The notes under the pieces were generated by a model. That model was not told the DNA's origin. It did not search any database and was given only the letters and a program-made list of their open reading frames with translations. A stretch of 64,000 bases of DNA from contig JABGYH010000006.1 of NCBI GenBank assembly GCA_018675335.1, positions 17,464 to 81,463 on the forward strand, in the 5' to 3' direction. Position 1 is the stretch's first letter. The number at the start of each line of letters is the position of its first letter. This document shows positions 230-12,937 of this stretch, piece by piece. Source of the DNA: Candidatus Woesearchaeota archaeon (GTDB lineage: Archaea; Nanobdellota; Nanobdellia; Woesearchaeales; UBA11576). The position numbers were made by a program, and so were the translations under genes.

Positions 230-2758
230 TTAATTAAATACATTATCAGTAATTACATAATCAACTCCTGAAAATATGAGATCTAGAGTAGTATTAATAT
301 TATTTGACGTATATGTGTGAATTTTAAATCCTTCGTTTTTCAAAATTTTAATAAGTTCAGGATTTAAATTTAAATAATTAAAATCAAATCCCAAAATTCC
401 CAAATTCTTAAGCTGTTTAAGTTTAAACTTATTTAAGTCAAATCTTATATTTTCATTCCAATAAATAAGTTTTATATCTGAATTTAATTCATGAACTTTC
501 AATAAATAATCAAGATTAGTAGATTCTAAAAATATTTTATCAGAAAGCCCATTAATTTCAATTAAGTGTACTAATTTTTTTAAAAAAGTAAGAGGTTGAC
601 AACCAAAATCTTTCAAATCTAAATGATAATTAAGTTTCCTACCCATTTTAATAAATACTTCCTCAAGAAGAGGAATTGACTGATTAGAAATAGTTCCATC
701 AAGATTTTTTATTTTAATTTTTTTCAAATTACTCAAATTCAAATCACAAACATTTCCAGCACTATTTGTCTTATCTTGTAATAAATAATCATGAAATAAA
801 ATTATAGTTCCATCCTGTAAAGAAGTAATATCAATTTCAACATTAATAAATCCACGCTCAAATGCTTTTTCTATTGCAAGTAACGAATTTTCGGGATACA
901 ATGATAATAAACCCCTATGACCAAACAATTTATTTAATAATAACAAATTTTTAAATCGTTTACAAAGATTAGTTTTTAAAAATAAATTTATATTTGATTT
1001 TTTTACCAATACAGGGTTAGATTCTGAAGGATCTTGACGCAAATCAAAAACTAATTCGAGTTTATTTTCAAAACTATAAACTTTTTTAATAGTGTTGTTT
1101 TGATTTATCACCATAAATCCCCCTCCATAAGGTTGCATCAAAACTTGACAAGACTCATATTGATCACTAAACATACTATGATTTTTTTTAATTAAAAAAG
1201 AAAATGAATTAGAAAAATAATTATCACTTAATAAACTTAAAATTGTTGGAATAATATCTAATTGACTATATTTATCAGTTATAATCCTATTTTTAAAAAA
1301 AGTTTCATTTTTTGATTTTGGAGGAACTAATAAAAAACTTGTAACAAACGAATCTTCATAAAAAGAAATTTCATTACTATAAATATTGTGTCGCCCAATA
1401 GGAAATGAATGATCTCCAAATATCATTAAATAACTATTATTTTCATATCTCATAAATCGTTTTTTAAAAACATTCAAATGATTATCTTGAACGACTAACG
1501 AATTAATATATTCTTCATACTTATTTTGTGCAGGATTGAATTTATAAACTGAAGAATATTCAGCTATATTCTTAAACGGGTAATGATGTTCATCTAAAGC
1601 CACATAAACAAATAATTTTTGACCTTCAATATAATTTTGTTCCAAATAATCAAATAATTTATCATATACTACATCATCCGGATATCCCCACTCAGTATTT
1701 TTTTCTTGCCCAGTTAAAAATTTGTCAAACAAAACATAATCAAACCCTATTTTTTTCATAAAAATTCCCGTTTTTTGAAAATTTAAATCATCTGCACTAA
1801 AAAAATAAGTAGTATAACCTGCATCCTTCAATATTTGAGGCAAACAAATTTTATTAAATTCAGATAATCTATCAACATAAAATGCGGCATTATTACTATA
1901 AATTCCACAAAGTATATTTTCTTGAGCACGTAACGTTTGAATACTATTGCTATAAAATTGAGGAAAAAATACTCCTTCTTTTGAAATATTAGTCATAACA
2001 GGAACATAATTTCCCACATATGTTTTATCAAACATGGTAACATTAGGCATGATATCCAACCCGTTAAGAGATTCTAATTGCACAAAAAAAATATGTTCAT
2101 TATGTTTTTGAGAAAAATTAAAATTACCAAAAACCTCCAAGTAATTTAAATTATATAATTCTTCTTTATTGGCTAAATTTTGCAAATAATCTCTACTAGA
2201 AACCACCAAAGGAACTGGGAAAAAAAAGATTGAACTTATTAAATTTACAAAAATTAAAAAAACAAATAAAATTATAATTAAATTTTTCTTTTTAAATATC
2301 TGAATCAAATATTTTTCTTTTAACAAATTTTTAATAAGTTTAATTCCTGATCGAAAAGTAAAATAAATTAAAAAAAATAATCCTAAAATAAAAATAATCA
2401 AATATGAAGTACCAACAGTATTTTTTAATGTTAACAGTGAATAAAAACCACTATCAAAAACAAAAGATAAGTCAATTAAATTCCCCGTATATAAATAATA
2501 AAAAAGAAATAATATTGACAGTACCCAATATGACAAATATAATCCCCATAAAAAAAAAGTTAAAAATTTAAATTTAGTTCCAAACAACAAACAACTTAGT
2601 AAAATAAATATAAATAAAAAAAGATGAAACAAAGTTGATAAAAATATATCTAAAATTATAAATTCCAACATATTTTGTATTAGTGGTAAAAAAACAAACA
2701 ATATAATTAACGGAAATAACTCCCCCCAATTATGTTTTAACATTTGCATAAATTTCAT
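230..2758 (-). CDS. Membrane-anchored LtaS-like (sulfatase/alkaline-phosphatase superfamily) phosphoglycerol-transferase domain fused to a C-terminal glycerophosphodiester phosphodiesterase (GDPD) domain
   Basis: About 185 aa of N-terminal TM helices. Then an LtaS-like core with 'FFVQLESLNG' (the metal-binding Glu motif of LtaS 'IQLESF') and the 'FGDHSFP' Asp/His metal motif. C-terminal 'FGHRGLLSLYPENSLLAIEKAFERGFINVEIDITSLQDGTIILFHD' is a canonical GDPD HRG...PEN...E.D...HD signature. Confidence 0.6.
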   Translation of the reverse strand: MKFMQMLKHNWGELFPLIILFVFLPLIQNMLEFIILDIFLSTLFHLFLFIFILLSCLLFGTKFKFLTFFLWGLYLSYWVLSILFLFYYLYTGNLIDLSFVFDSGFYSLLTLKNTVGTSYLIIFILGLFFLIYFTFRSGIKLIKNLLKEKYLIQIFKKKNLIIILFVFLIFVNLISSIFFFPVPLVVSSRDYLQNLANKEELYNLNYLEVFGNFNFSQKHNEHIFFVQLESLNGLDIMPNVTMFDKTYVGNYVPVMTNISKEGVFFPQFYSNSIQTLRAQENILCGIYSNNAAFYVDRLSEFNKICLPQILKDAGYTTYFFSADDLNFQKTGIFMKKIGFDYVLFDKFLTGQEKNTEWGYPDDVVYDKLFDYLEQNYIEGQKLFVYVALDEHHYPFKNIAEYSSVYKFNPAQNKYEEYINSLVVQDNHLNVFKKRFMRYENNSYLMIFGDHSFPIGRHNIYSNEISFYEDSFVTSFLLVPPKSKNETFFKNRIITDKYSQLDIIPTILSLLSDNYFSNSFSFLIKKNHSMFSDQYESCQVLMQPYGGGFMVINQNNTIKKVYSFENKLELVFDLRQDPSESNPVLVKKSNINLFLKTNLCKRFKNLLLLNKLFGHRGLLSLYPENSLLAIEKAFERGFINVEIDITSLQDGTIILFHDYLLQDKTNSAGNVCDLNLSNLKKIKIKNLDGTISNQSIPLLEEVFIKMGRKLNYHLDLKDFGCQPLTFLKKLVHLIEINGLSDKIFLESTNLDYLLKVHELNSDIKLIYWNENIRFDLNKFKLKQLKNLGILGFDFNYLNLNPELIKILKNEGFKIHTYTSNNINTTLDLIFSGVDYVITDNVFN

Positions 2759-5028
2759 TTTTTAATCAATTCACCAAGTTTTTTTCTAAAAATAAATACC
2801 AAAATAAACGAAAATAAACTAAAAAAAAACAATCCAATTCTTAATGCTCTTAATTTATATTCAAAATAAACTTTGTAAACTCCTGGAGTGTCAACTTTTA
2901 CAGACATAAAACTTGGACTAATTTCGTAAATTTCAGATTCAGTTCCATTAACATACGCGCGCCATTCAGGATGCGCACTAACTTTTAACATAATAAAACA
3001 ACTAGAATCAGTTACATTAACTAAAGTTTCATAATATCCTCGCCTAACAACTTCAGTTCCACCAATAACAGATCCACAATTTTTAGGAACTGATTTAAAT
3101 GTTTGAAAAAAATGGAGTGCATCTACTGTTGTTAATTCATGTGTTTTTAAATTTTTAACATCAATATTAAAACTATTATCAGTTATAACAACTCGTTTTC
3201 TATCCTCACTTAACAATGATTGATAATTTTTCATCAAAACAGATCGTTCAGGGGGAATAATTAAAAAGTTCAAATCAATATGTTCAGTTATACTAGTTAA
3301 TTCATTCAACAAACGAGGTTTTAAAATTAGGATATGTTCATTAGTCGAAGGAAGTACACTAAAATACCACATAAGAAAAATAGGCCTGGAATCACCTAAA
3401 GAAGAATCAATCGCAATAGAACTTTGAACTAAATCAAAATAAGAAGAAGACGTTTTATTAAAAATAACATAGTTTTTATTTTTAAAATAAAAATCAGTCA
3501 AATTAGTTCTATTAGAATTTGAAATAAAATAGCCTAAATTAAATAAATTATACAGATCAGTTTTATTTGAGAATGAAATAAATGGTTTATTCACATAAAA
3601 AATACTCAAAGAATCATGTCCTCCTATTCCACCACTAAAAAAAGACGGTTTATTAGAATAAATTGGAATGCTATTAGGAATCATAGAATATGAACTAAAA
3701 TTTTCAAAAATTACTCGAGAATTAGGCATTAAATTTAACTCATTCATGATTTGATTAAGATCCGGTTCAGACCCCACATCATGAAAAGTAACAACGTTTC
3801 CCACATAATTAGCAGATGTATCTATAACAACAGGTGCCAAAAAAAAAACACAAACTAATAATACAATCAATAAATTAATTTGTTCATACCGGTGAAGCCT
3901 AAATTTAGAAGAAATCAAATCAATCAAAAAACCAAATGCGACTCCGATAAGAATTATTGAAAAAAAATGAAGCAAACTAATAAACCTAAATAATGGAATT
4001 GCACTAACACCAGGAATAAAATTAATTAAATTTCCAAATAATGCACGACCAATTAAAAAAAAGAAAGATAAACAAAACCCTGCCAAAATAAATTTATGTC
4101 TATCTTCTTGACGAAAATGAAAAGAAATCAAAATTCCCAAAACAGCAAAAAAAGTTAAAAAAGGCAATCTCCCAAAATCTAAAAAATTACCTGAAAAAAA
4201 ATGAAAAAATGATGAAACCCCATAACCATCAATACGATCAAAAGATTTATGTGAAAATTTACCATCATTCATATAATCCCCATAAAAATATATTGGAATC
4301 AAAAGAAATGCCACAAAACAGAAAGTACAAAAAGCTAAAAAAAGAATTTTCTTTAATTTTAGTTTATTAAATTTCAAAAAAAGAGCAGGCACAGCAGTTA
4401 AAGCAGCCATAAACCCAGATAAAAAATGGGTTAAAAAAGTAAGAGATAAAAAAACAGATACTTTAAAAAAAGTAATTTCATTTTTACAATTTTTAATAAA
4501 AAAAAATCGGTAAATAAACGCAATTGTAAGTGGAAAAAAAATTAACACCATCACTTGAGAGTATATACCATATTTAAAAAAAGCTACAATCTCTAATCCA
4601 AATCCCTGATAAGAAGAAAGCATTGTTGAGACCAATGCACTAAATAATGAACTAATTTGAGAAAATTCCATCAACCTCATACTTTTATAAATAACTAAAG
4701 GGAATAACCCAAAAGATAAAAAGATCGATAACTTAAATAAAAATAACAAATCTAAATGAGTGAATACATATATTAAACCAATAAAAAAATAAGATAATGG
4801 TGCATAAAAATTAAACAAAGGAAACCCCAAATTATAATCTGGACTCCACCAATTAAGAGTATGAGTTTGAATTAAATCTACCGTATTAATAACTAAATTA
4901 AAATGACTTACTCCATCGCCCCCCGGAGGAAGCCCTCGCTGCAATAAAGGAGATAAAAAAAATAAATTAAAAAAAATAATAATTCCTAAAATAATATACA
5001 GCGATGTTTTGTGTAATTCTTTCATCAA
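2755..5028 (-). CDS. Large polytopic membrane protein with C-terminal extracytoplasmic domain; GT-C-like glycosyltransferase candidate (YfhO/ArnT/PMT-like architecture). Not AglB: no WWDYG motif
   Basis: At least 12 predicted TM helices across the first ~400 aa, then a ~350 aa soluble domain. Its start overlaps the stop of the LtaS-GDPD gene by 4 nt, indicating an operon. Assignment is by architecture only. Confidence 0.35.
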   Translation of the reverse strand: MMKELHKTSLYIILGIIIFFNLFFLSPLLQRGLPPGGDGVSHFNLVINTVDLIQTHTLNWWSPDYNLGFPLFNFYAPLSYFFIGLIYVFTHLDLLFLFKLSIFLSFGLFPLVIYKSMRLMEFSQISSLFSALVSTMLSSYQGFGLEIVAFFKYGIYSQVMVLIFFPLTIAFIYRFFFIKNCKNEITFFKVSVFLSLTFLTHFLSGFMAALTAVPALFLKFNKLKLKKILFLAFCTFCFVAFLLIPIYFYGDYMNDGKFSHKSFDRIDGYGVSSFFHFFSGNFLDFGRLPFLTFFAVLGILISFHFRQEDRHKFILAGFCLSFFFLIGRALFGNLINFIPGVSAIPLFRFISLLHFFSIILIGVAFGFLIDLISSKFRLHRYEQINLLIVLLVCVFFLAPVVIDTSANYVGNVVTFHDVGSEPDLNQIMNELNLMPNSRVIFENFSSYSMIPNSIPIYSNKPSFFSGGIGGHDSLSIFYVNKPFISFSNKTDLYNLFNLGYFISNSNRTNLTDFYFKNKNYVIFNKTSSSYFDLVQSSIAIDSSLGDSRPIFLMWYFSVLPSTNEHILILKPRLLNELTSITEHIDLNFLIIPPERSVLMKNYQSLLSEDRKRVVITDNSFNIDVKNLKTHELTTVDALHFFQTFKSVPKNCGSVIGGTEVVRRGYYETLVNVTDSSCFIMLKVSAHPEWRAYVNGTESEIYEISPSFMSVKVDTPGVYKVYFEYKLRALRIGLFFFSLFSFILVFIFRKKLGELIKK

Positions 5029-5098
5029 AAATTTAAAAATAAAAGATATTTAAATAGTTTTAGAATCATTTAAATAGGAAAACAAGTATATCCAAATT

Positions 5099-5812
5099 AT
5101 GAAAATATCCATAGTAATTCCCGCATATAATGAAGAAAAAAGAATAGGAAATTCATTAAAAAAAATAATCAAATTTTGCAATAAAAATTTGACAGATTAT
5201 GAATTAATCATAGTGAATGACTTCTCAAAAGACAATACATTAGAAATAATAAACAAAAACAAAAACAAAAAAACAAAAGTTCTAAAAAATAAAAAAAATA
5301 AAGGAAAAGGTTATACTGTGAAAAGAGGTATTTTAAATGCAAAATACCCTCTAGTCCTATTTTCAGATAGTGATCTTGCAACACCTATTGAAGAAATTTT
5401 AAAAATGCTCAAATACATCCCAAAATATGATATTATTATTGCATCCAGAAACCTAAAAAAGTCCGATGTAAGAGTCAAACAATCTTGGTATCGTCAAATA
5501 ATGGGTAAAACATTTCCAATTATTGTTAATATGCTAGCAGTTCCAGGAATTCGTGATACTCAATGTGGATTTAAATTATTCAAAACAGATCTAGCAAAAA
5601 AAATTGTATCAAAGCAAACAATTAATAGATGGGCTTTTGATGTAGAATTATTATTTATCGCAAGAAAAATGAATCTAAAAATAAAAGAAGTCCCAATTAT
5701 TTGGATCGATAAAGAAGGAAGCACAATAACCAACCCCCTCCGAGACGCAACAAAAATGCTAAAAGATGTTATAAAAATCCAATTAAATAATTTCAAAGGA
5801 AAATATGATTAA
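5099..5812 (+). CDS. GT2 family polyprenyl-phosphate sugar synthase (Dpm1/GtrB/CsbB-like)
   Basis: 'ISIVIPAYNEE...IVNDFSKDNT...FSDSDLATP...TQCGFKLF' gives GT2 DxD/DAD-type motifs. Length 237 aa. Confidence 0.7.
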   Translation: MKISIVIPAYNEEKRIGNSLKKIIKFCNKNLTDYELIIVNDFSKDNTLEIINKNKNKKTKVLKNKKNKGKGYTVKRGILNAKYPLVLFSDSDLATPIEEILKMLKYIPKYDIIIASRNLKKSDVRVKQSWYRQIMGKTFPIIVNMLAVPGIRDTQCGFKLFKTDLAKKIVSKQTINRWAFDVELLFIARKMNLKIKEVPIIWIDKEGSTITNPLRDATKMLKDVIKIQLNNFKGKYD

Positions 5813-6522
5813 AAAAATTTAAAAATAAAATAATTCCATAAATTATACAAATAAAGATAATATTCTTTAAAATTTGCTTTACTTTTTCCTTTAACGCGAT
5901 CAGTAAAAGTTATTGGTACTTCTTTAACGATTTTCCAATTTGATTTAACCAACAGCTCTAAACAAATTTTAAATCCTTTTGCATTAAATCGTTTTCCTTC
6001 TATACATTTTTTTTTAATTAAAAAAAAACCAGACATGGGATCCTTCGCTTTAGTAAATGGACGAGATAAAAATGTTGCTCCTTTTGAAACAATTCTTCGA
6101 AATAAAGGCCACCCAACAATTTTACCTCCCTTAACATACCTGCTTCCAATAACAAAATCAGGAAATCGCTTATCATATCCAACAGGAGTAATAATTGCAT
6201 TATAAAGTTGAGGAATTAATTGGGGAGGATGACTCATATCAGCATCCATAACGCCTAAAATTTCTCCTTTTGCACAATCAAATCCTGCTAATACTGCAGA
6301 ACTTAAACCAGTTTTAGCAGTTCTACTTAACAAATGAAGTTTAGAAAATTTATTTTTAAGTTTTTTAACCATTTCACTCGTTCCATCAGGAGAATTATCA
6401 TCAACAACAATAATCTCCGCAGAAATTTTATATTGACTAAATAATTCAAACAAATTTTTAATTAAAATAGAAATATTTTCTTTTTCATTATAAGTTGGAA
6501 TTATTAAACTAAGAACTACCAT
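5809..6522 (-). CDS. GT2 family dolichyl-phosphate hexose synthase (Dpm1-like), paralog of the convergent neighbour
   Basis: 'LSLIIPTYNEKENI...IVVDDNSPDGT...GVMDADMSHPP'. Exactly 237 aa. Converges on the previous GT2 with overlapping stop codons. Confidence 0.7.
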   Translation of the reverse strand: MVVLSLIIPTYNEKENISILIKNLFELFSQYKISAEIIVVDDNSPDGTSEMVKKLKNKFSKLHLLSRTAKTGLSSAVLAGFDCAKGEILGVMDADMSHPPQLIPQLYNAIITPVGYDKRFPDFVIGSRYVKGGKIVGWPLFRRIVSKGATFLSRPFTKAKDPMSGFFLIKKKCIEGKRFNAKGFKICLELLVKSNWKIVKEVPITFTDRVKGKSKANFKEYYLYLYNLWNYFIFKFF

Positions 6523-8422
6523 TGTTTACTCCTCGCATCTTTTGTTTTGTTAATAAAATAAGTTTATAAACTGATTGATCGGGTTTCATTTGTAACGCAA
6601 AATTAAATGCAAATAATGCCTCCTCATATTCACCTAAATAAAAATTAGCAATTCCTAAGTTATTCCACGACTCAAATGAAGAATTATCTAATTTAATTGC
6701 TTGATGAAAAAAATATTTAGCTGAGTTATAATCACCCATTTTCAATTTGTTTATTCCTAAAAATGATTTAGAATTAGAAAAATCTCTTTTAAGAACTAAA
6801 TATACAGGATCTTTTGATTCATTATGACTTATCAAATAATTAGCACTATAATATTCATAATCTAAATCAACATTCAAAGTAGACAAATTATTAATTTGAA
6901 AAATAATGCCCCTAATAGAATAAGTTTTATTTTCAACAGATAAATTATTAAAAGTGGAAAACAAAACATAATTAGTATCTAATTTAGCAATTAAATTATT
7001 AAATATATCATCAACACTCAAATAGTTTTCATTTGATAAAATAATATTAAATTTAGATTCAAGTTGTTTTAAATAAACCTTTGATCCAAACATATTTATA
7101 TGAATGATCTCAGTATTAACAAATTTATTATCAACATACTTTAAATACCAAAAAATGGGCAAAGTTACATCACTATCGGTAAACAAAACATTTTTTTCAG
7201 ACGTAATACTATAAATAGTATTATCAACATCTAATCCATACCAATAAGGCAAATAATTATCAGATTCATTATTAATTTGAAAATTACTATAAAATTGAAA
7301 ACATATCAAACAAAAAACAATTAAAAAAATAAAACCTTTAATTAATTTATTTAACTTATAATTTAATAAAAAATAAAAGCCATAAAGTATAATAAATAAA
7401 ACAAAAAAATAAGAGCTTAAAAAAAATATATCAATTCCTTTAATTTCAGTACCTATTTTATAAGTTATATTAAATAACAAATTAACTAAAAGAACTAATA
7501 AAAAAAAAATTCCTAATTTTATATCTTTTCTTTTAAAAAATAAATAAAAAACACCTAAAAAAATAAATAAACTTAACAAACCAAATTGAAAAAACAAATC
7601 ATTTACAAAAAAGGATATATAAGACGAAACTTGAGAATAATCTGCAGACCCCATCAACGGCCTAAATTGTTTTGCAGTTACATGATCTAAAAAATTACTA
7701 AATAATTCTGGATTACCCCAATCCATTTCAGGATTCATTGAAGATCTAATTGACAAATATAAATAGGGAGTAAGGCCAATAAGAAAAATTAAAAAACAAA
7801 TAATAATTATTTTAATATTAAACATTTTTTTATTTATTTTTAAATTAAAAATATTAAATCCTTGTTTTTTAATAAATATAAAATATAAAAATCCAGGAGC
7901 AAACAAAACATAAGTAAGATGATTTGTTAAACAAAGACCGTAGGTAAAACAAAAAAAATATAACCATTTATTATCTCCTAATTTTTCAAATTTTAACAAA
8001 AAATAAAAAGATACACTCAATAAAAAAATACCTAAAGTATGAACCTCGGCAATCACTGCTTGACTCCAAAATGTTTTAGAAAAAGAAAAAAGAAAAACTG
8101 CTAATAACGAAATTAATTTATTTTTAGATAAAATTAAAGCAGATAAAAATATGAAAATAGCAGCTAAACTTCCAAAAAATGCAGACATTAAATTAATCCT
8201 AAATCCCTGAGTTCCTAAAGGAATATAAGAAAACACATGCCCTAACATAGTATGCAAAGGATATCCTGTTGGGTGCGCTATTCCCAAAGTTATTGCAGCA
8301 GTTGAAAGTTCAACTGAATCTTCCCATTCAATAATTGGATTTAAAGTAATAAAATAAATTGAAAAGGTTAAAAAAAAAACAAATACAACCATAAAATAAG
8401 TATTTAAATATTTATTAACCAT
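6509..8422 (-). CDS. DUF2723/TMEM260-like GT-C membrane glycosyltransferase candidate with C-terminal TPR repeats
   Basis: N-terminal 'LGIAHPTGYPLHTMLGHVF' resembles the DUF2723 signature. About 11 TM helices. C-terminal 'YNSAKYFFHQAIKLDNSSFESWNNLGIANFYLGEYEEALFAFNFALQMKP' is TPR-like. Overlaps the upstream GT2 by 14 nt. Confidence 0.45.
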   Translation of the reverse strand: MVNKYLNTYFMVVFVFFLTFSIYFITLNPIIEWEDSVELSTAAITLGIAHPTGYPLHTMLGHVFSYIPLGTQGFRINLMSAFFGSLAAIFIFLSALILSKNKLISLLAVFLFSFSKTFWSQAVIAEVHTLGIFLLSVSFYFLLKFEKLGDNKWLYFFCFTYGLCLTNHLTYVLFAPGFLYFIFIKKQGFNIFNLKINKKMFNIKIIIICFLIFLIGLTPYLYLSIRSSMNPEMDWGNPELFSNFLDHVTAKQFRPLMGSADYSQVSSYISFFVNDLFFQFGLLSLFIFLGVFYLFFKRKDIKLGIFFLLVLLVNLLFNITYKIGTEIKGIDIFFLSSYFFVLFIILYGFYFLLNYKLNKLIKGFIFLIVFCLICFQFYSNFQINNESDNYLPYWYGLDVDNTIYSITSEKNVLFTDSDVTLPIFWYLKYVDNKFVNTEIIHINMFGSKVYLKQLESKFNIILSNENYLSVDDIFNNLIAKLDTNYVLFSTFNNLSVENKTYSIRGIIFQINNLSTLNVDLDYEYYSANYLISHNESKDPVYLVLKRDFSNSKSFLGINKLKMGDYNSAKYFFHQAIKLDNSSFESWNNLGIANFYLGEYEEALFAFNFALQMKPDQSVYKLILLTKQKMRGVNNGSS

Positions 8423-8508
8423 TTAGTTATTCAATATTAAACATTTTAAAAAGATTTAGGTAATATAATAATTATGTCTCATAACAATCAAGTAAAATAT
8501 TATAACTT

Positions 8509-9468
8509 CTAGTTATTATTTTTGTTCTTTCTAAAATATTTTGTTAACAAAAAGTAAAATACTAAGAAATATACAACAAACAGAATCCACCCAATATTAT
8601 TATGAAACAAATTTATTGCAAATTGCCTATCTATTTCAATTGCAACAATAGTTAATAAAAAAATTCTAAAAGAAGTAAGAACAAAATCACCAATTAATGC
8701 CAATCCAAATGCAGTAAATAGCTTCCAATCTTTTTTCAATTTGTCATCATATAAAAGAACTACAAGAAACAAAAATAGAAATAAAGAACTTGACTCAATA
8801 CCTGAACAATCTTTGCTTATTCCTGCTAGAAATCCTTTAGCAACTAATCCCATTCCTTGCTCATAAGGAACTACTGTCGCAATATTACCATAAACTAAAT
8901 TCAACATCCCTGCAGTTAAATTTGCAACCAAACTTGAAAAATAAACCCAATTTAAGTTCAAAAATTCTTTAATAGCAACATATATGACAATAAGAAGAAT
9001 TAGAGAAATAAATGTTTTTTTGTATTTAAAAAAAACTTTTTTGAAATAATTCAACCCAAAAATTGCGCAAAAAAAAGTAATTGTACCCAACCCATATAAA
9101 ACGGAAGATACATAAAAAATAGTCCATGCAAAATCATAATTACTTTTTGGATGAATAAAATACCTAAGTACAAAAAAAAGGAAAAATAAAATAAGCGAAC
9201 TTACTGAAAAAACAATTAGTTGAAATAAATCAGTTTTGGGTTTTAATTTCATTAATTCTTCTTCATTTAAAATAAAAAAAAGAACTAATAACACAAAAAA
9301 AAGAATATGTAATCTATGAAGAATTATATTAAATCCAATAACTAACTCAAATATATTCGCTAAAAAACTAAATAATAAAGGAAGTAACATAAAAACAGAA
9401 GTAAAAAAAATAAAATAATTAATTCTAAAAAAATTATATTTAGACAAATTCATTTTATTTCCTTTCAA
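8509..9468 (-). CDS. Exosortase/archaeosortase family transpeptidase (ArtA-like)
   Basis: About 8 TM helices over 319 aa. 'AGISKDCSGIESSS' matches the exosortase active-site CSG(I/L)xS motif. A downstream conserved Arg lies in 'LTSFRIFLL'. Overlaps the upstream secreted-protein gene by 14 nt. Confidence 0.55.
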   Translation of the reverse strand: MKGNKMNLSKYNFFRINYFIFFTSVFMLLPLLFSFLANIFELVIGFNIILHRLHILFFVLLVLFFILNEEELMKLKPKTDLFQLIVFSVSSLILFFLFFVLRYFIHPKSNYDFAWTIFYVSSVLYGLGTITFFCAIFGLNYFKKVFFKYKKTFISLILLIVIYVAIKEFLNLNWVYFSSLVANLTAGMLNLVYGNIATVVPYEQGMGLVAKGFLAGISKDCSGIESSSLFLFLFLVVLLYDDKLKKDWKLFTAFGLALIGDFVLTSFRIFLLTIVAIEIDRQFAINLFHNNIGWILFVVYFLVFYFLLTKYFRKNKNNN

Positions 9469-9871
9469 AAATTATTATGATTTTTCCAGAATAATAACCA
9501 TCTTCAATACCAATTGGAGGAAATACTCTAAAAAACAAAGGAAATTTTTCCAAAGGTTCTAAACTAAAAGAATTATTACGAGGAATAACTAAATCAGGAT
9601 AATCACCAACTGCATAAATTTTCACATTTACAGGCACATCATGCGAGTTTGTTACAAATACTTTCCGTTCAGAACTAGATCCTCCAGGAACCATCCCAAA
9701 ATGAATAGCGTCTGGATCAACATTAATTCCTACAATCGAACCATTAACTTTAAAATCGTATAACATAGTGCTTTTTTCAACAACTTTATAACTAGAATAC
9801 GCTAAAGAAGTTATACCAATACTAAATAATAAAACTAAAAAAAATAAAATAAAAAGAGTCATTTTTTTCAT
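9455..9871 (-). CDS. Small secreted protein (signal peptide plus ~110 aa beta-rich domain), co-operonic with the archaeosortase
   Basis: N-terminal 'MKKMTLFILFFLVLLFSIGITSLAYSS' signal peptide. Only a 4 nt gap to the upstream gene. Confidence 0.4.
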   Translation of the reverse strand: MKKMTLFILFFLVLLFSIGITSLAYSSYKVVEKSTMLYDFKVNGSIVGINVDPDAIHFGMVPGGSSSERKVFVTNSHDVPVNVKIYAVGDYPDLVIPRNNSFSLEPLEKFPLFFRVFPPIGIEDGYYSGKIIIIFERK

Positions 9872-9875
9872 AATA

Positions 9876-11069
9876 TCACCACTGTGTTTGTTGTTTTTTT
9901 TTCCTCTTTTTCAAAACAATTAATACTAAAATATTAAGTAATACAAGGACAGTTACAGCACCTATCAACATCCAATTAGTATCCCCATCAAAAGTTGAAG
10001 GTTTTTTCTCATCTTGACTTTTTTGAAACTCTTCTTGACTCAGAACAGTCACATTACCCTTATAATTAGAACTGCTCCCATCATAAAACAAAGTTATTCT
10101 TAAATCTTTATTTCCTGATGTTAAGCTTTGAGAATCTAAGTACGTAGACAATGTTCCCATTCCCATTTTATCTAATTTAATTGTAGGTGTCTGAGTAATA
10201 AGGTCATCAATAAATATTTTAGCATATATATTAACATTATTATTCCAATTACTCTTAACACGAACATCAAATGGAGCTATAATACCTGCAATTAATCTAG
10301 TAGTGTGACTCATAACACCTATATTTTTTGTTCCTACAAAAAAAGAATCGCTAAGATTTTCTTCAGGTTGACCATCATAATTAATAATTGCAGTTGCAGT
10401 ATATTTACCAGGGGGAAACCCAGTAGAATCAAAGTCTGCTTCCAAAAAAATCTGTTCAAAATAACCTACTGAAAGCTCATTTGTATAAAGCGTAGTAATA
10501 GAATTTTGTTGATCATCAAATACATTTATTGTTGCACTTATTTTATCAATTAAATTTGTTCCTAAATTTTGAACTGAAATTTGCATTTTTGCAATATCAT
10601 TCTCATTTAAATTAGGCGCATTTAATTCAGAATTAATTTTATACCCTTCATAAGGCATATTAATTATTATTTTTCCCCTCGCACTACCAATTGAACCCGT
10701 TCCTCCACTATTTAAACTAGATGTTGGCACTTCAGTTACCGTAACAAAATTAGTTATTTGTCCTTGTTCAATTAAAGTTTCAGGAAGGTTTACATGAACT
10801 TTAAAATTAAGTATCGCAGGATTTTTAATATTTTTTATATATTTAGGTTCAACAGTTATATACTCCGATAATTTACCAGACACAGTTATGTCATAATCCA
10901 GCACTAAAGGAGGCCTGTTTGCTTTTATACTATAAGTATACGTTTTTTTATCACCTGGTTTAAAATTAATTAATTTTCCAGGTCCTCCAACCGAGCCAAT
11001 ACCAATAGCTAAAATAGAATTAGTAAACATAATTAATATTACTATATATAACACAAATTTTAATTTCAT
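9876..11069 (-). CDS. Secreted surface protein with C-terminal TM helix plus poly-basic tail; candidate archaeosortase substrate
   Basis: N-terminal signal peptide 'MKLKFVLYIVILIMFTNSILAIG'. C-terminus 'NWMLIGAVTVLVLLNILVLIVLKKRKKKQQTQW' is a tripartite-like sorting signal (motif, TM, Lys/Arg cluster). No PGF motif. Confidence 0.45.
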   Translation of the reverse strand: MKLKFVLYIVILIMFTNSILAIGIGSVGGPGKLINFKPGDKKTYTYSIKANRPPLVLDYDITVSGKLSEYITVEPKYIKNIKNPAILNFKVHVNLPETLIEQGQITNFVTVTEVPTSSLNSGGTGSIGSARGKIIINMPYEGYKINSELNAPNLNENDIAKMQISVQNLGTNLIDKISATINVFDDQQNSITTLYTNELSVGYFEQIFLEADFDSTGFPPGKYTATAIINYDGQPEENLSDSFFVGTKNIGVMSHTTRLIAGIIAPFDVRVKSNWNNNVNIYAKIFIDDLITQTPTIKLDKMGMGTLSTYLDSQSLTSGNKDLRITLFYDGSSSNYKGNVTVLSQEEFQKSQDEKKPSTFDGDTNWMLIGAVTVLVLLNILVLIVLKKRKKKQQTQW

Positions 11070-11099: not shown

Positions 11100-11118
11100 A
11101 AAAAAAAAAAAAAAAAAA
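11100..11118 (-). terminator. Oligo-T tract (T19 on the coding strand) 2 nt after the stop of the upstream surface-protein gene: archaeal-type intrinsic terminator
   Basis: 19 consecutive A on the + strand at 11100-11118, directly downstream of the TAA stop at 11120-11122 of the minus-strand gene. Confidence 0.5.
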
Positions 11119-11817: not shown

Positions 11818-12147
11818 TTATTCTGTAGGATTTTCAGTTCCTTCAACTGCTTCTGGTTCTACTGGTGCAGGTTCTAAAACCGCTTCAGCTTCTACAGGTT
11901 GTTCTGCTGGTAATATCTCTAAACTTACTTCTGCATCTTTAGGCTCTACTGGTGCAGGCTCTGGCGCAGGTTGAATTATTTCTAATGAAACCTTTGCATC
12001 ACCTTTATCAGACGGACCTACGATATTAACATCAGTAGGTGCCTTACTAGCCATCTCTAATACTGTCACTGTACCAACAACTGAAACAACAAGTGTAAGA
12101 ACCAGCAAAATCAAAATAGTTTTTTTCGAAACGTCATCTTTTGCCAT
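11818..12147 (-). CDS. Small Pro/Glu/Ala/Val-rich repeat surface protein with N-terminal TM, paralogous N-terminus to the neighbour
   Basis: 'MAKDDVSKKTILILLVLTLVVSVVG' resembles the neighbour's 'EEVSNKTLAILLVAAIVVSLGG'. Internal repeat 'DAKVSLEIIQPAPEPAPVEP' / 'DAEVSLEILPAEQPVEAEA'. Perfect SD 'AAAGGAGGTAAGTAAT ATG'. GC-rich. Confidence 0.4.
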   Translation of the reverse strand: MAKDDVSKKTILILLVLTLVVSVVGTVTVLEMASKAPTDVNIVGPSDKGDAKVSLEIIQPAPEPAPVEPKDAEVSLEILPAEQPVEAEAVLEPAPVEPEAVEGTENPTE

Positions 12148-12415: not shown

Positions 12416-12937
12416 ATGTGGGCCGACTTACTACATAAAATTTGTATTTTCTTAATAATTATAATTTTAATAACATTAGGTTGGACTGCAAATGATATCA
12501 TCAGTGAAAGCCTAGAAATAAAATATGAAAAACCATTCGCATTTTCAATTAAAGAAATAACTAAAAGTACAGAAATTAGTTCTCCCTCAAATCACATTAA
12601 AGAAAACCAAATTCATGTTTACCAAGATTTAATCATTTTAGATATAAAAAACGCTAGTTGGGGTAGTTTTACAGATACTAATAGCATGGATCCATTCTTA
12701 GATCAAGGCTCAAATAGCATCGAAATCAAACCAACAAAACAATCACAAATTCAAGTAGGAGATATTATTTCTTATGAAAACTCTAAAAAAGAAATCATAA
12801 TTCACAGAGTAATAGAAAAAGGACTTGATTCAGAAGGTACTTATTATATACTTAAAGGAGATAATAATCAAGGTAAAGATCATCAAAAAGTACGGTTCAA
12901 TCAAATCAAAGGAATTTTAGTTGGAATAATTTACTAA
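12416..12937 (+). CDS. Signal peptidase I (S26B, Sec11-like archaeal type)
   Basis: N-terminal TM. 'TNSMDPFL' (Ser box), 'IIHRVIE' (His box) and 'LKGDNNQ' (GDNN box). Confidence 0.6.
   Translation: MWADLLHKICIFLIIIILITLGWTANDIISESLEIKYEKPFAFSIKEITKSTEISSPSNHIKENQIHVYQDLIILDIKNASWGSFTDTNSMDPFLDQGSNSIEIKPTKQSQIQVGDIISYENSKKEIIIHRVIEKGLDSEGTYYILKGDNNQGKDHQKVRFNQIKGILVGIIY

Follow-up and report, generated by a model that had tools for sequence, protein, structure and literature searches.

An archaeosortase-family gene of a DPANN archaeon lies beside a gene for an Ig-domain surface protein, its candidate substrate

Introduction

Among the described systems, ArtA of Haloferax volcanii, the enzyme of PGF-CTERM proteins, is the precedent for substrate cleavage and lipid anchoring (PMC6098224, PMC9263693), and its residues Cys173, Arg214 and Arg253 are experimentally critical (PMC9263693). 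A Cys/Arg/His set defines the exosortase/archaeosortase family, and the criteria for its sorting signals (section 5 of the same work) include three or more nearly invariant signature residues; the known motifs abut the transmembrane (TM) helix (Haft, 10.1101/2023.06.07.544157). Reviews describe archaeosortases in Euryarchaeota, and a literature search for DPANN archaeosortases returned no paper. Here we analyze an archaeosortase-family gene and the genes for two secreted proteins that lie next to it in a 64,000-nucleotide (nt) stretch of DNA (the window) from Candidatus Woesearchaeota archaeon (GenBank assembly GCA_018675335.1, contig JABGYH010000006.1, positions 17,464 to 81,463). The window was studied together with about 20 kb of flanking sequence of the same contig, which makes about 84 kb of this genome.

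The lifestyle of DPANN archaea is one of attachment to a host cell, and their surface proteins and the anchoring of these are therefore central to it. To our knowledge, archaeosortase biology is known experimentally from haloarchaea only. For the locus analyzed here, family membership of the enzyme, conservation of its catalytic residues, the substrate architecture of the neighboring protein and linkage of the genes in three lineages are established. The substrate status of this 397 amino acid (aa) neighbor and of a 438 aa paralogue, the cleavage site and the attachment partner are what we infer from them.

Results

The 319 aa protein is a member of the exosortase/archaeosortase family

A preliminary description of the locus, made from its sequence, had recognized an archaeosortase-family protein in the 319 aa open reading frame (ORF) by a CSG(I)xS active-site motif and 8 TM helices. 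Both features are present: the motif reads D-C221-S-G-I-E-S226, and a Kyte-Doolittle hydropathy scan detects approximately 8 to 9 TM segments. The comparison with hidden Markov models that had been proposed as a check also bears out the assignment, since the protein scores above the curated cutoffs of TIGR04178 (48.1 bits, cutoff 23, residues 217–311) and PF09721 (35.6 bits, cutoff 25.7). Its other matches are weak ones to exosortase models only (exosortase E or XrtE, TIGR04162, 31.6 bits vs. a cutoff of 150), and none of the named Art subfamily models matched at E ≤ 1. No transporter-like family was matched in the NCBIfam and Pfam scans, so that the protein is not the non-sortase transporter that had been considered as an alternative.

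An exhaustive profile search for relatives returned 1512 cluster representatives with E ≤ 0.001, of which 111 had E ≤ 1e-30; most were proteins of 300–330 aa. When 79 of these relatives (21–58% identity to the window sortase) were aligned, Cys221, Arg268, His289 and one Phe proved invariant and nothing else did. The Cys, Arg and His residues, which all lie inside the TIGR04178 match, are the candidate catalytic residues. All 79 relatives pass the generic signature model only, with weak ArtC matches in 57 of the 79 and weak XrtE matches in 73; the wider family matches ArtC or ArtE weakly, and no match reaches subfamily level. Judged by sequence, membership in the exosortase/archaeosortase family is solid, and the window sortase is an unclassified DPANN clade of this known family of polytopic membrane cysteine peptidases. 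Public annotation pipelines already assign the gene to the archaeosortase/exosortase family.

The sortase gene is packed behind genes for two secreted beta-sandwich proteins

The sortase gene is the last of three consecutive genes on the minus strand (Table 1), in a window of 24–32% G+C. Between the TGA codon of the 397 aa gene and the ATG of the 138 aa gene lie 4 nt (tatt), exactly the spacing first reported. The 14-nt overlap reported between the 138 aa gene and the sortase gene exists only if translation starts at TTG 9468. The more likely start is the ATG at 9453, which would give a sortase of 314 aa: it stands 1 nt past the TAA of the 138 aa gene, has a GAAAGG sequence 8 nt upstream, and has been chosen in public gene calls. 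With either start, the packing of the genes is tight. Upstream, a run of 19 T residues separates the stop codon of a 225 aa gene from the start of the 397 aa gene, which has a ribosome-binding-like site of its own (AAGGGGGA) just 5' of it and separate from the T-run. A comparable T-rich run (about 6210–6232) directly follows the stop codon of the 220 aa gene in the related locus L001 described below. Both runs probably act as archaeal intrinsic terminators, dividing a five-gene cluster into 2 transcription units. Because of the tight packing, the T-run and the separate AAGGGGGA site, it is plausible that the genes for the 397 aa protein, the 138 aa protein and the sortase form one co-transcribed unit.

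Both proteins encoded upstream of the sortase begin with a hydrophobic segment, in agreement with their description as secreted. In the 397 aa protein, hydropathy analysis places this N-terminal signal ahead of a single C-terminal TM helix (approximately residues 366–386), after which the chain ends in the lysine-rich cluster already recorded (KKRKKK, in full KKRKKKQQTQW). An AlphaFold2 (AF2) model built from a three-sequence alignment (predicted local distance difference test score, pLDDT, 77) consists of 3 immunoglobulin (Ig)-like beta-sandwich domains (residues 32–138, 145–245 and 250–343), a disordered linker (351–365) and a helix (362–396). Foldseek searches with this model returned generic tandem Ig-like, ASH and macroglobulin arrays, among them the H. 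volcanii S-layer glycoprotein (7ptp) at a low TM-score. The 138 aa protein contains one beta-rich domain behind its hydrophobic segment (signal or anchor) and no further TM segment. It has a weak ASH match in Pfam and weak choice-of-anchor D matches in NCBIfam. Alignment with the 397 family by hhalign (probability 77%, E 2e-5) relates it to domain 1, of which it appears to be a small secreted paralogue. For the 138 aa protein, a single-sequence AF2 model reached a pLDDT of 58, which was too low for a fold search, and was dropped.

A second member of the 397 family, a 438 aa paralogue, is encoded on the same contig, approximately 10 kb beyond window position 1 and on the strand of the cluster (L018, 19596–20912; hhalign probability 99.8%). 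Its tail reads SSDEKKEKSMF-FISILVITVLVSVLINIFIIRYF-MKKRKNDDYYEGRF. The visible 84 kb thus hold 2 members of the 397 family, and with this paralogue present a view of one substrate per enzyme is too simple for this genome.

Sortase and 397-family genes are linked in three of nine lineages

We compared nine independent loci that encode a sortase of this clade or family, counting L001 as one species with L002, L009, L010 and L011. Sampling by pattern search yielded 1 locus from genome contigs and 3 from metagenome contigs, few because the clade is rare and the search needs conserved 7–10-mers. The closest sortase, that of L001 (58% identity), keeps the whole arrangement, with genes for 84 aa, 220 aa, 407 aa and 147 aa proteins, the sortase and a divergently oriented signal peptidase. 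The order of the 397 aa, 138 aa and sortase genes is preserved in this species at protein identities of 58% (sortase), 39% and 33%. In L015, the sortase (33–35% identity) is encoded divergently beside homologues of the 109 aa, 225 aa and 397 aa genes, and a second 397-family paralogue lies on its other side; a 138 aa homologue is missing from this locus, and among the loci examined no 138 aa orthologue was found beyond the L001 species. The signal peptidase gene is syntenic in L001 and not in L015 (tblastn). In L003 (41%), L014 (35%) and L016 (32%) the sortase gene lies among housekeeping genes, and in L012 (34%) and L017 (30%) within glycosyltransferase and flippase operons.

A different partner was found in L006 (30%), where a PMT_2 gene is followed by a gene for a secreted protein of 137 aa (7591–8004) and by the sortase gene (8001–8918), which overlap by 4 nt. 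The small protein ends in VPEFGVFVGMLTLMACVGVFFFVKKQ (VPEFGVFVG...KKQ), that is, in a VPEFG-TM-KKQ pattern, although this tail gave no score with the NCBIfam PEF-CTERM model. The L006 protein with the PEF-like tail, compared as a 153 aa sequence, is unrelated to the 138 aa protein and was rejected as an orthologue of it. The overlapping pair looks like a dedicated PEF-CTERM-like enzyme and target, and through it dedicated cis-encoded pairs can be said to exist in this sortase family.

Altogether, the sortase gene adjoins 397-family genes in 3 of the 9 independent lineages, at sortase identities of 100, 58 and 33%. The linkage is real yet partial. The dedicated one-substrate arrangement that had been proposed is accordingly supported in part, by the gene order in L001 and the linkage in L015, but it is atypical of the wider family and sits uneasily with 2 family members in the genome.

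The tails of the 397 family lack a common pre-helix motif

The tail of the 397 aa protein consists of STFDGDTNW, the TM helix MLIGAVTVLVLLNILVLIVL and the lysine cluster. None of the PGF, PEF, PIP and VPXXXP models matches the protein, as had been noted at the outset, and the 64 kb window and its flanks yielded no protein with a cognate PGF, VPXXXP, PEF or PIP motif. Tails were collected from all ORFs with a C-terminal anchor, both in the window and in 13 independent loci. Word-indexed searches for 397-family homologues added P0006 and P0155 alone, both on short contigs without usable context. Eight family tails were aligned, and the seven pre-TM segments outside L006 were compared with 2000 shuffles (21 comparisons).

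No residue before the TM helix is common to the eight tails, and the sole invariant tail residue across six 397-family members is one Leu within the helix. An F-x-G-x-TNW element is common only to the window protein and its L001 orthologue, that is, to two species. These orthologues are 38% identical overall; by segment, the linker reaches 7%, the nine pre-TM residues 56%, the helix 45% and the basic cluster 67%, and conservation returns at F360 after the linker; 104 of the 389 nine-residue windows are as conserved as the pre-TM one, or more. Local alignment of the pre-TM segments against shuffles gave significant scores for the orthologue pair (z = 5.2) and for P0155 with L015-422 (z = 4.8). 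A Phe near the helix occurs in 4 of the 7 tails compared (STF, SMF, AMF and SGF), which recalls PGF and PEF and falls short of a signature.

These tails do not support the idea that the locus might define a new recognition motif. The preliminary description had set beforehand, as one result that would speak against its proposal, that no conserved motif precedes the helix; this is what the eight tails give, with approximately 84 kb of this genome covered. The tripartite sorting-signal architecture proposed for the protein is borne out for the helix, the lysine cluster and the signal peptide (attributes 1, 4, 5 and 6 of the Haft list: position, helix, basic cluster, signal peptide), but not for signature residues before the helix.

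The 397 aa protein as a possible substrate of its neighbor

The reading that we prefer, and hold to be evenly balanced between right and wrong, is that this DPANN archaeosortase processes the adjacent Ig-domain 397 aa protein, and probably also its paralogue, in an ArtA-like way within a surface-glycosylation island. The 397 aa protein would be exported by the Sec pathway and its signal peptide removed by signal peptidase I, while the C-terminal TM helix and lysine cluster would retain it in the membrane. The sortase, through Cys221, Arg268 and His289, would then cleave near the start of the helix, and the cleaved protein would be transferred to a lipid or glycolipid anchor, by analogy with ArtA. 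The adjoining glycosyltransferase block may glycosylate the protein or help to make the acceptor. In favor of this reading are the family assignment of the enzyme, the architecture of the 397 aa protein, the gene linkage in three lineages, the conservation that returns ahead of the helix in the orthologue pair, the L006 pair and the precedent of ArtA. The link between enzyme and substrate is plausible, and the evidence for it is the gene neighborhood.

Several observations weigh against this reading. Six of the 9 sortase loci are without a 397-family gene within 5–8 kb. The tail of the 397 aa protein fails the criterion of three nearly invariant signature residues, no pre-helix residue is invariant across six family members, and its conserved Phe is parted from the helix by a 6-residue charged spacer. 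Whereas 11 residues follow the TM helix in the 397 aa protein, 20–35 do so in some family tails (L001, L015 and P0155), and extensions of this length are unusual for cleaved sorting signals. Outside the orthologue pair, pre-TM similarity does not rise above shuffled controls except between P0155 and L015-422. The 397 aa and 438 aa proteins of this genome have DEKK-x-x-S-x-F in common at p = 0.04, a value uncorrected for the 21 comparisons. Other substrates may be encoded in the genome beyond the approximately 84 kb covered here.

Much of the same evidence would suit the main alternative, itself somewhat unlikely, in which the sortase is real and the 397 aa protein is permanently TM-anchored, the genes being adjacent as parts of an envelope gene island and the true substrates being encoded elsewhere. 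Family tails without a common signature motif, long and variable cytoplasmic extensions in several 397 homologues, and the absence of a neighboring 397-family gene from most sortase relatives would all be expected from it. Furthermore, synteny between the window and L001 extends well past the cluster, reaching the signal peptidase, a 283 aa protein and an M24 peptidase, so that part of the linkage between the sortase and 397-family genes reflects shared descent. However, the linkage persists at 33% sortase identity in L015 despite a different, divergent arrangement, the three genes are packed within 1–4 nt of each other behind the T-run, and the 64 kb window encodes no other C-terminally anchored candidate.

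A more far-reaching form of the preferred reading, which we regard as rather unlikely, is that the locus represents a new archaeosortase subfamily with its own target family. The targets would be three-Ig-domain surface proteins, recognized by a degenerate [S/A]-x-F...TNW juxtamembrane element or by features of the helix itself (a mid-helix Asn, the Lys cluster) rather than by a classical motif of three residues, and they would be joined to a glycan or glycolipid acceptor that the adjacent block of glycosyltransferase and LtaS-GDPD genes provides.

Genes of the sortase family are linked to genes for surface glycan assembly

The genes 3' of the sortase gene form a glycan and envelope-modification block (Table 1). 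Its last gene encodes an 842 aa fusion of a Sulfatase/LtaS-like domain and a glycerophosphodiester phosphodiesterase (GDPD) domain, which could be linked to a glycerophosphate-type surface modification or anchor. The window was scanned for a PssA-type CDP-alcohol phosphatidyltransferase motif, with a negative result. In L006, L012, L017 and the window itself, the sortase gene is part of, or next to, an operon of glycosyltransferase or flippase genes. Relatives from the deep search include sortases fused to Wzx-type flippases (P0019 and P0059) and one fused to a sugar phosphotransferase of the Bac_transf type (P0088). Glycan-assembly genes are at least as frequent partners of this sortase family as 397-family genes are. 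In L012 and L017, the operons that contain sortases of this family are of the GT2/GT4/flippase type (GT, glycosyltransferase family), an association resembling that of exopolysaccharide (EPS) loci, in seemingly archaeal (DPANN-type) genomes.

These fusions and operons would also be compatible with a sortase-like protein that functions mainly in the assembly of surface glycan or polysaccharide, in the manner of EpsH, for instance by coupling or releasing a glycan-linked product. We consider this improbable, because the peptidase-type Cys/Arg/His set is intact. In work by Haft from 2006, the linkage to EPS genes in bacteria is said to accompany true protein sorting of PEP-CTERM proteins, and the glycan context is therefore compatible with protein substrates.

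A match to GG_III-CTERM is confined to the window protein

The 397 aa protein passes one curated tail model, NCBIfam NF041738 (GG_III-CTERM), with 30.5 bits for the full protein against a cutoff of 22 and 36.2 bits for the tail alone. Replacing the TM helix by either of two scrambled versions or by poly-Leu abolished the match, so that residue order is needed. Removing the pre-TM motif left the tail with 30.4 bits (a loss of 6), and removing the lysines left 17.1 bits (a loss of 19). The model did not match the L001 orthologue, P0006, P0155, the two L015 paralogues or the 438 aa paralogue (E ≤ 1 or 10), and GG_III-CTERM was rejected as a property of the 397 family because the window protein alone matches. 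The recognition motif had been proposed as possibly undescribed; since the tail passes a curated model, it is not new in every respect, although the relatives do not keep the match. That the tail is merely a member of the GG_III-CTERM class and carries no new signal, as the order-dependent score would allow, is very improbable given the unmatched relatives, a score that comes mostly from the TM helix and Lys cluster rather than from a signature motif, and a literature in which no paper on the model or its cognate enzyme was found.

Other features of the region

The 225 aa and 109 aa proteins encoded upstream of the T-run have homologues in L001 (5278–6201) and L015 (4841–5762) and gave no family match in NCBIfam or Pfam. 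Across the three lineages they begin with a near-identical N-terminal segment, M-x-[ED]-[ED]-[VI]-S-[NK]-K-T-L...LLV...S-[LV]-[GV]-G. A strand-like motif, G-[KE]-V-[STK]-L-x-[IV], is present in two copies in the 109 aa protein and in one copy in the 225 aa protein. Together with the 397-family proteins, these two make up a set of three that accompanies the sortase; it is conceivable that they are pilin-like or donor-strand-type fiber subunits.

A conserved block of large proteins without family annotation was noted in L001 (9443–17155) and in L018 (12717–19535). It comprises proteins of 937/486 aa with a common YWFG...GYGYY C-terminal domain, of 437/457 aa and of 2031/1331 aa. In L001 the block directly follows the sortase gene, whereas in the window genome the glycosylation block intervenes. 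This difference suggests that the glycosylation block was inserted or deleted.

Table 1. Features of the locus, in window coordinates
Feature	Positions	Strand	Basis or remark
842 aa membrane protein, Sulfatase/LtaS-like (phosphoglycerol transferase-like) and GDPD domains	230–2758	-	
757 aa polytopic membrane protein	2755–5028		
GT2 gene	5099–5812	+	
GT2 gene	5809–6522	-	
TMEM260/PMT-like glycosyltransferase with TPR repeats	6509–8422		follows sortase gene
Glycan/envelope-modification block 3' of sortase gene	230–8422	mixed	family matches of its genes
Archaeosortase/exosortase-family protein	8509–9468	-	TIGR04178, PF09721; 319 aa from TTG 9468, more likely 314 aa from ATG 9453
138 aa single beta-sandwich protein, secreted or anchored at its N-terminus	9455–9871	-	hydropathy, hhalign
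397 aa type I membrane surface protein, candidate sortase substrate	9876–11069	-	AF2 model, hydropathy
C-terminal tail of 397 aa protein (residues 358–397)	9879–9998	-	NF041738 match
19-T run, likely archaeal terminator	11100–11118	-	sequence; function inferred
225 aa protein, strongly conserved N-terminal TM segment	11120–11797	-	linked in 3 lineages
109 aa protein, N-terminus paralogous to that of 225 aa protein	11818–12147	-	linked in the same 3 lineages
Archaeal type I signal peptidase, divergent	12416–12937	+	TIGR02228, 55.8 bits, cutoff 51.85

Discussion

The enzyme family is known and its member here already carries a public annotation; a substrate encoded in cis is plausible and unproven. 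If the sortase does process the Ig-domain protein, the locus would offer a compact enzyme-substrate pair for studying target recognition and attachment by archaeosortases. If it represents a new subfamily with its own target family, archaeosortase-type anchoring would extend to DPANN archaea with a new class of signal.

Exosortase E of the VPEID-CTERM system (TIGR04162) is the only subfamily whose model matches the window sortase, and its loci, like those of the bacterial EpsH/XrtA PEP-CTERM system, have a recurrent link to polysaccharide or glycosyltransferase genes. The likeness ends there: 31.6 bits is far under the 150-bit cutoff, a fused CAAX-type protease domain and a VPEID or PEP motif are absent, and the host is an archaeon. 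With the GG_III-CTERM class (NF041738), the window tail has in common a score above the curated cutoff that depends on residue order, whereas none of the orthologous, paralogous and more distant sequences compared with the 397 aa protein passes that model.

Of the named archaeal subfamilies, ArtC of the PEF-CTERM system (TIGR03762) comes nearest to the wider DPANN family, through its weak match to 57 of the 79 relatives, and the 30% identical L006 sortase gene overlaps a gene whose product ends in VPEFG-TM-KKQ. In contrast, the window sortase is not matched by the ArtC model at E ≤ 1 and its 397 aa neighbor is without PEF.

With ArtA, the window system has in common a polytopic enzyme of the same superfamily with conserved Cys and Arg, a substrate or candidate substrate that combines a signal peptide, Ig-like surface domains and a C-terminal TM helix with a basic cluster, and glycosylation genes relevant to substrate maturation. 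The two differ in that the window sortase does not match the ArtA model and the 397 aa protein has no PGF. In addition, the basic cluster consists of Lys instead of Arg and the conserved Phe is set off from the helix by charged residues. The host is a DPANN archaeon, whereas reviews place archaeosortases in Euryarchaeota, and the window lacks a PssA-type motif. ArtA has been studied experimentally, whereas the window system is known from sequence alone.

Compared with the dedicated systems of one enzyme and one target described by Haft (10.1101/2023.06.07.544157), the present locus departs in its recurrence in 3 of 9 lineages, in the presence of at least 2 family members in the genome (the 397 aa and 438 aa proteins) and in tails that carry no three-residue signature. 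It agrees with them in that the genes for the enzyme and its candidate target are consecutive or nearby and that this arrangement recurs elsewhere.

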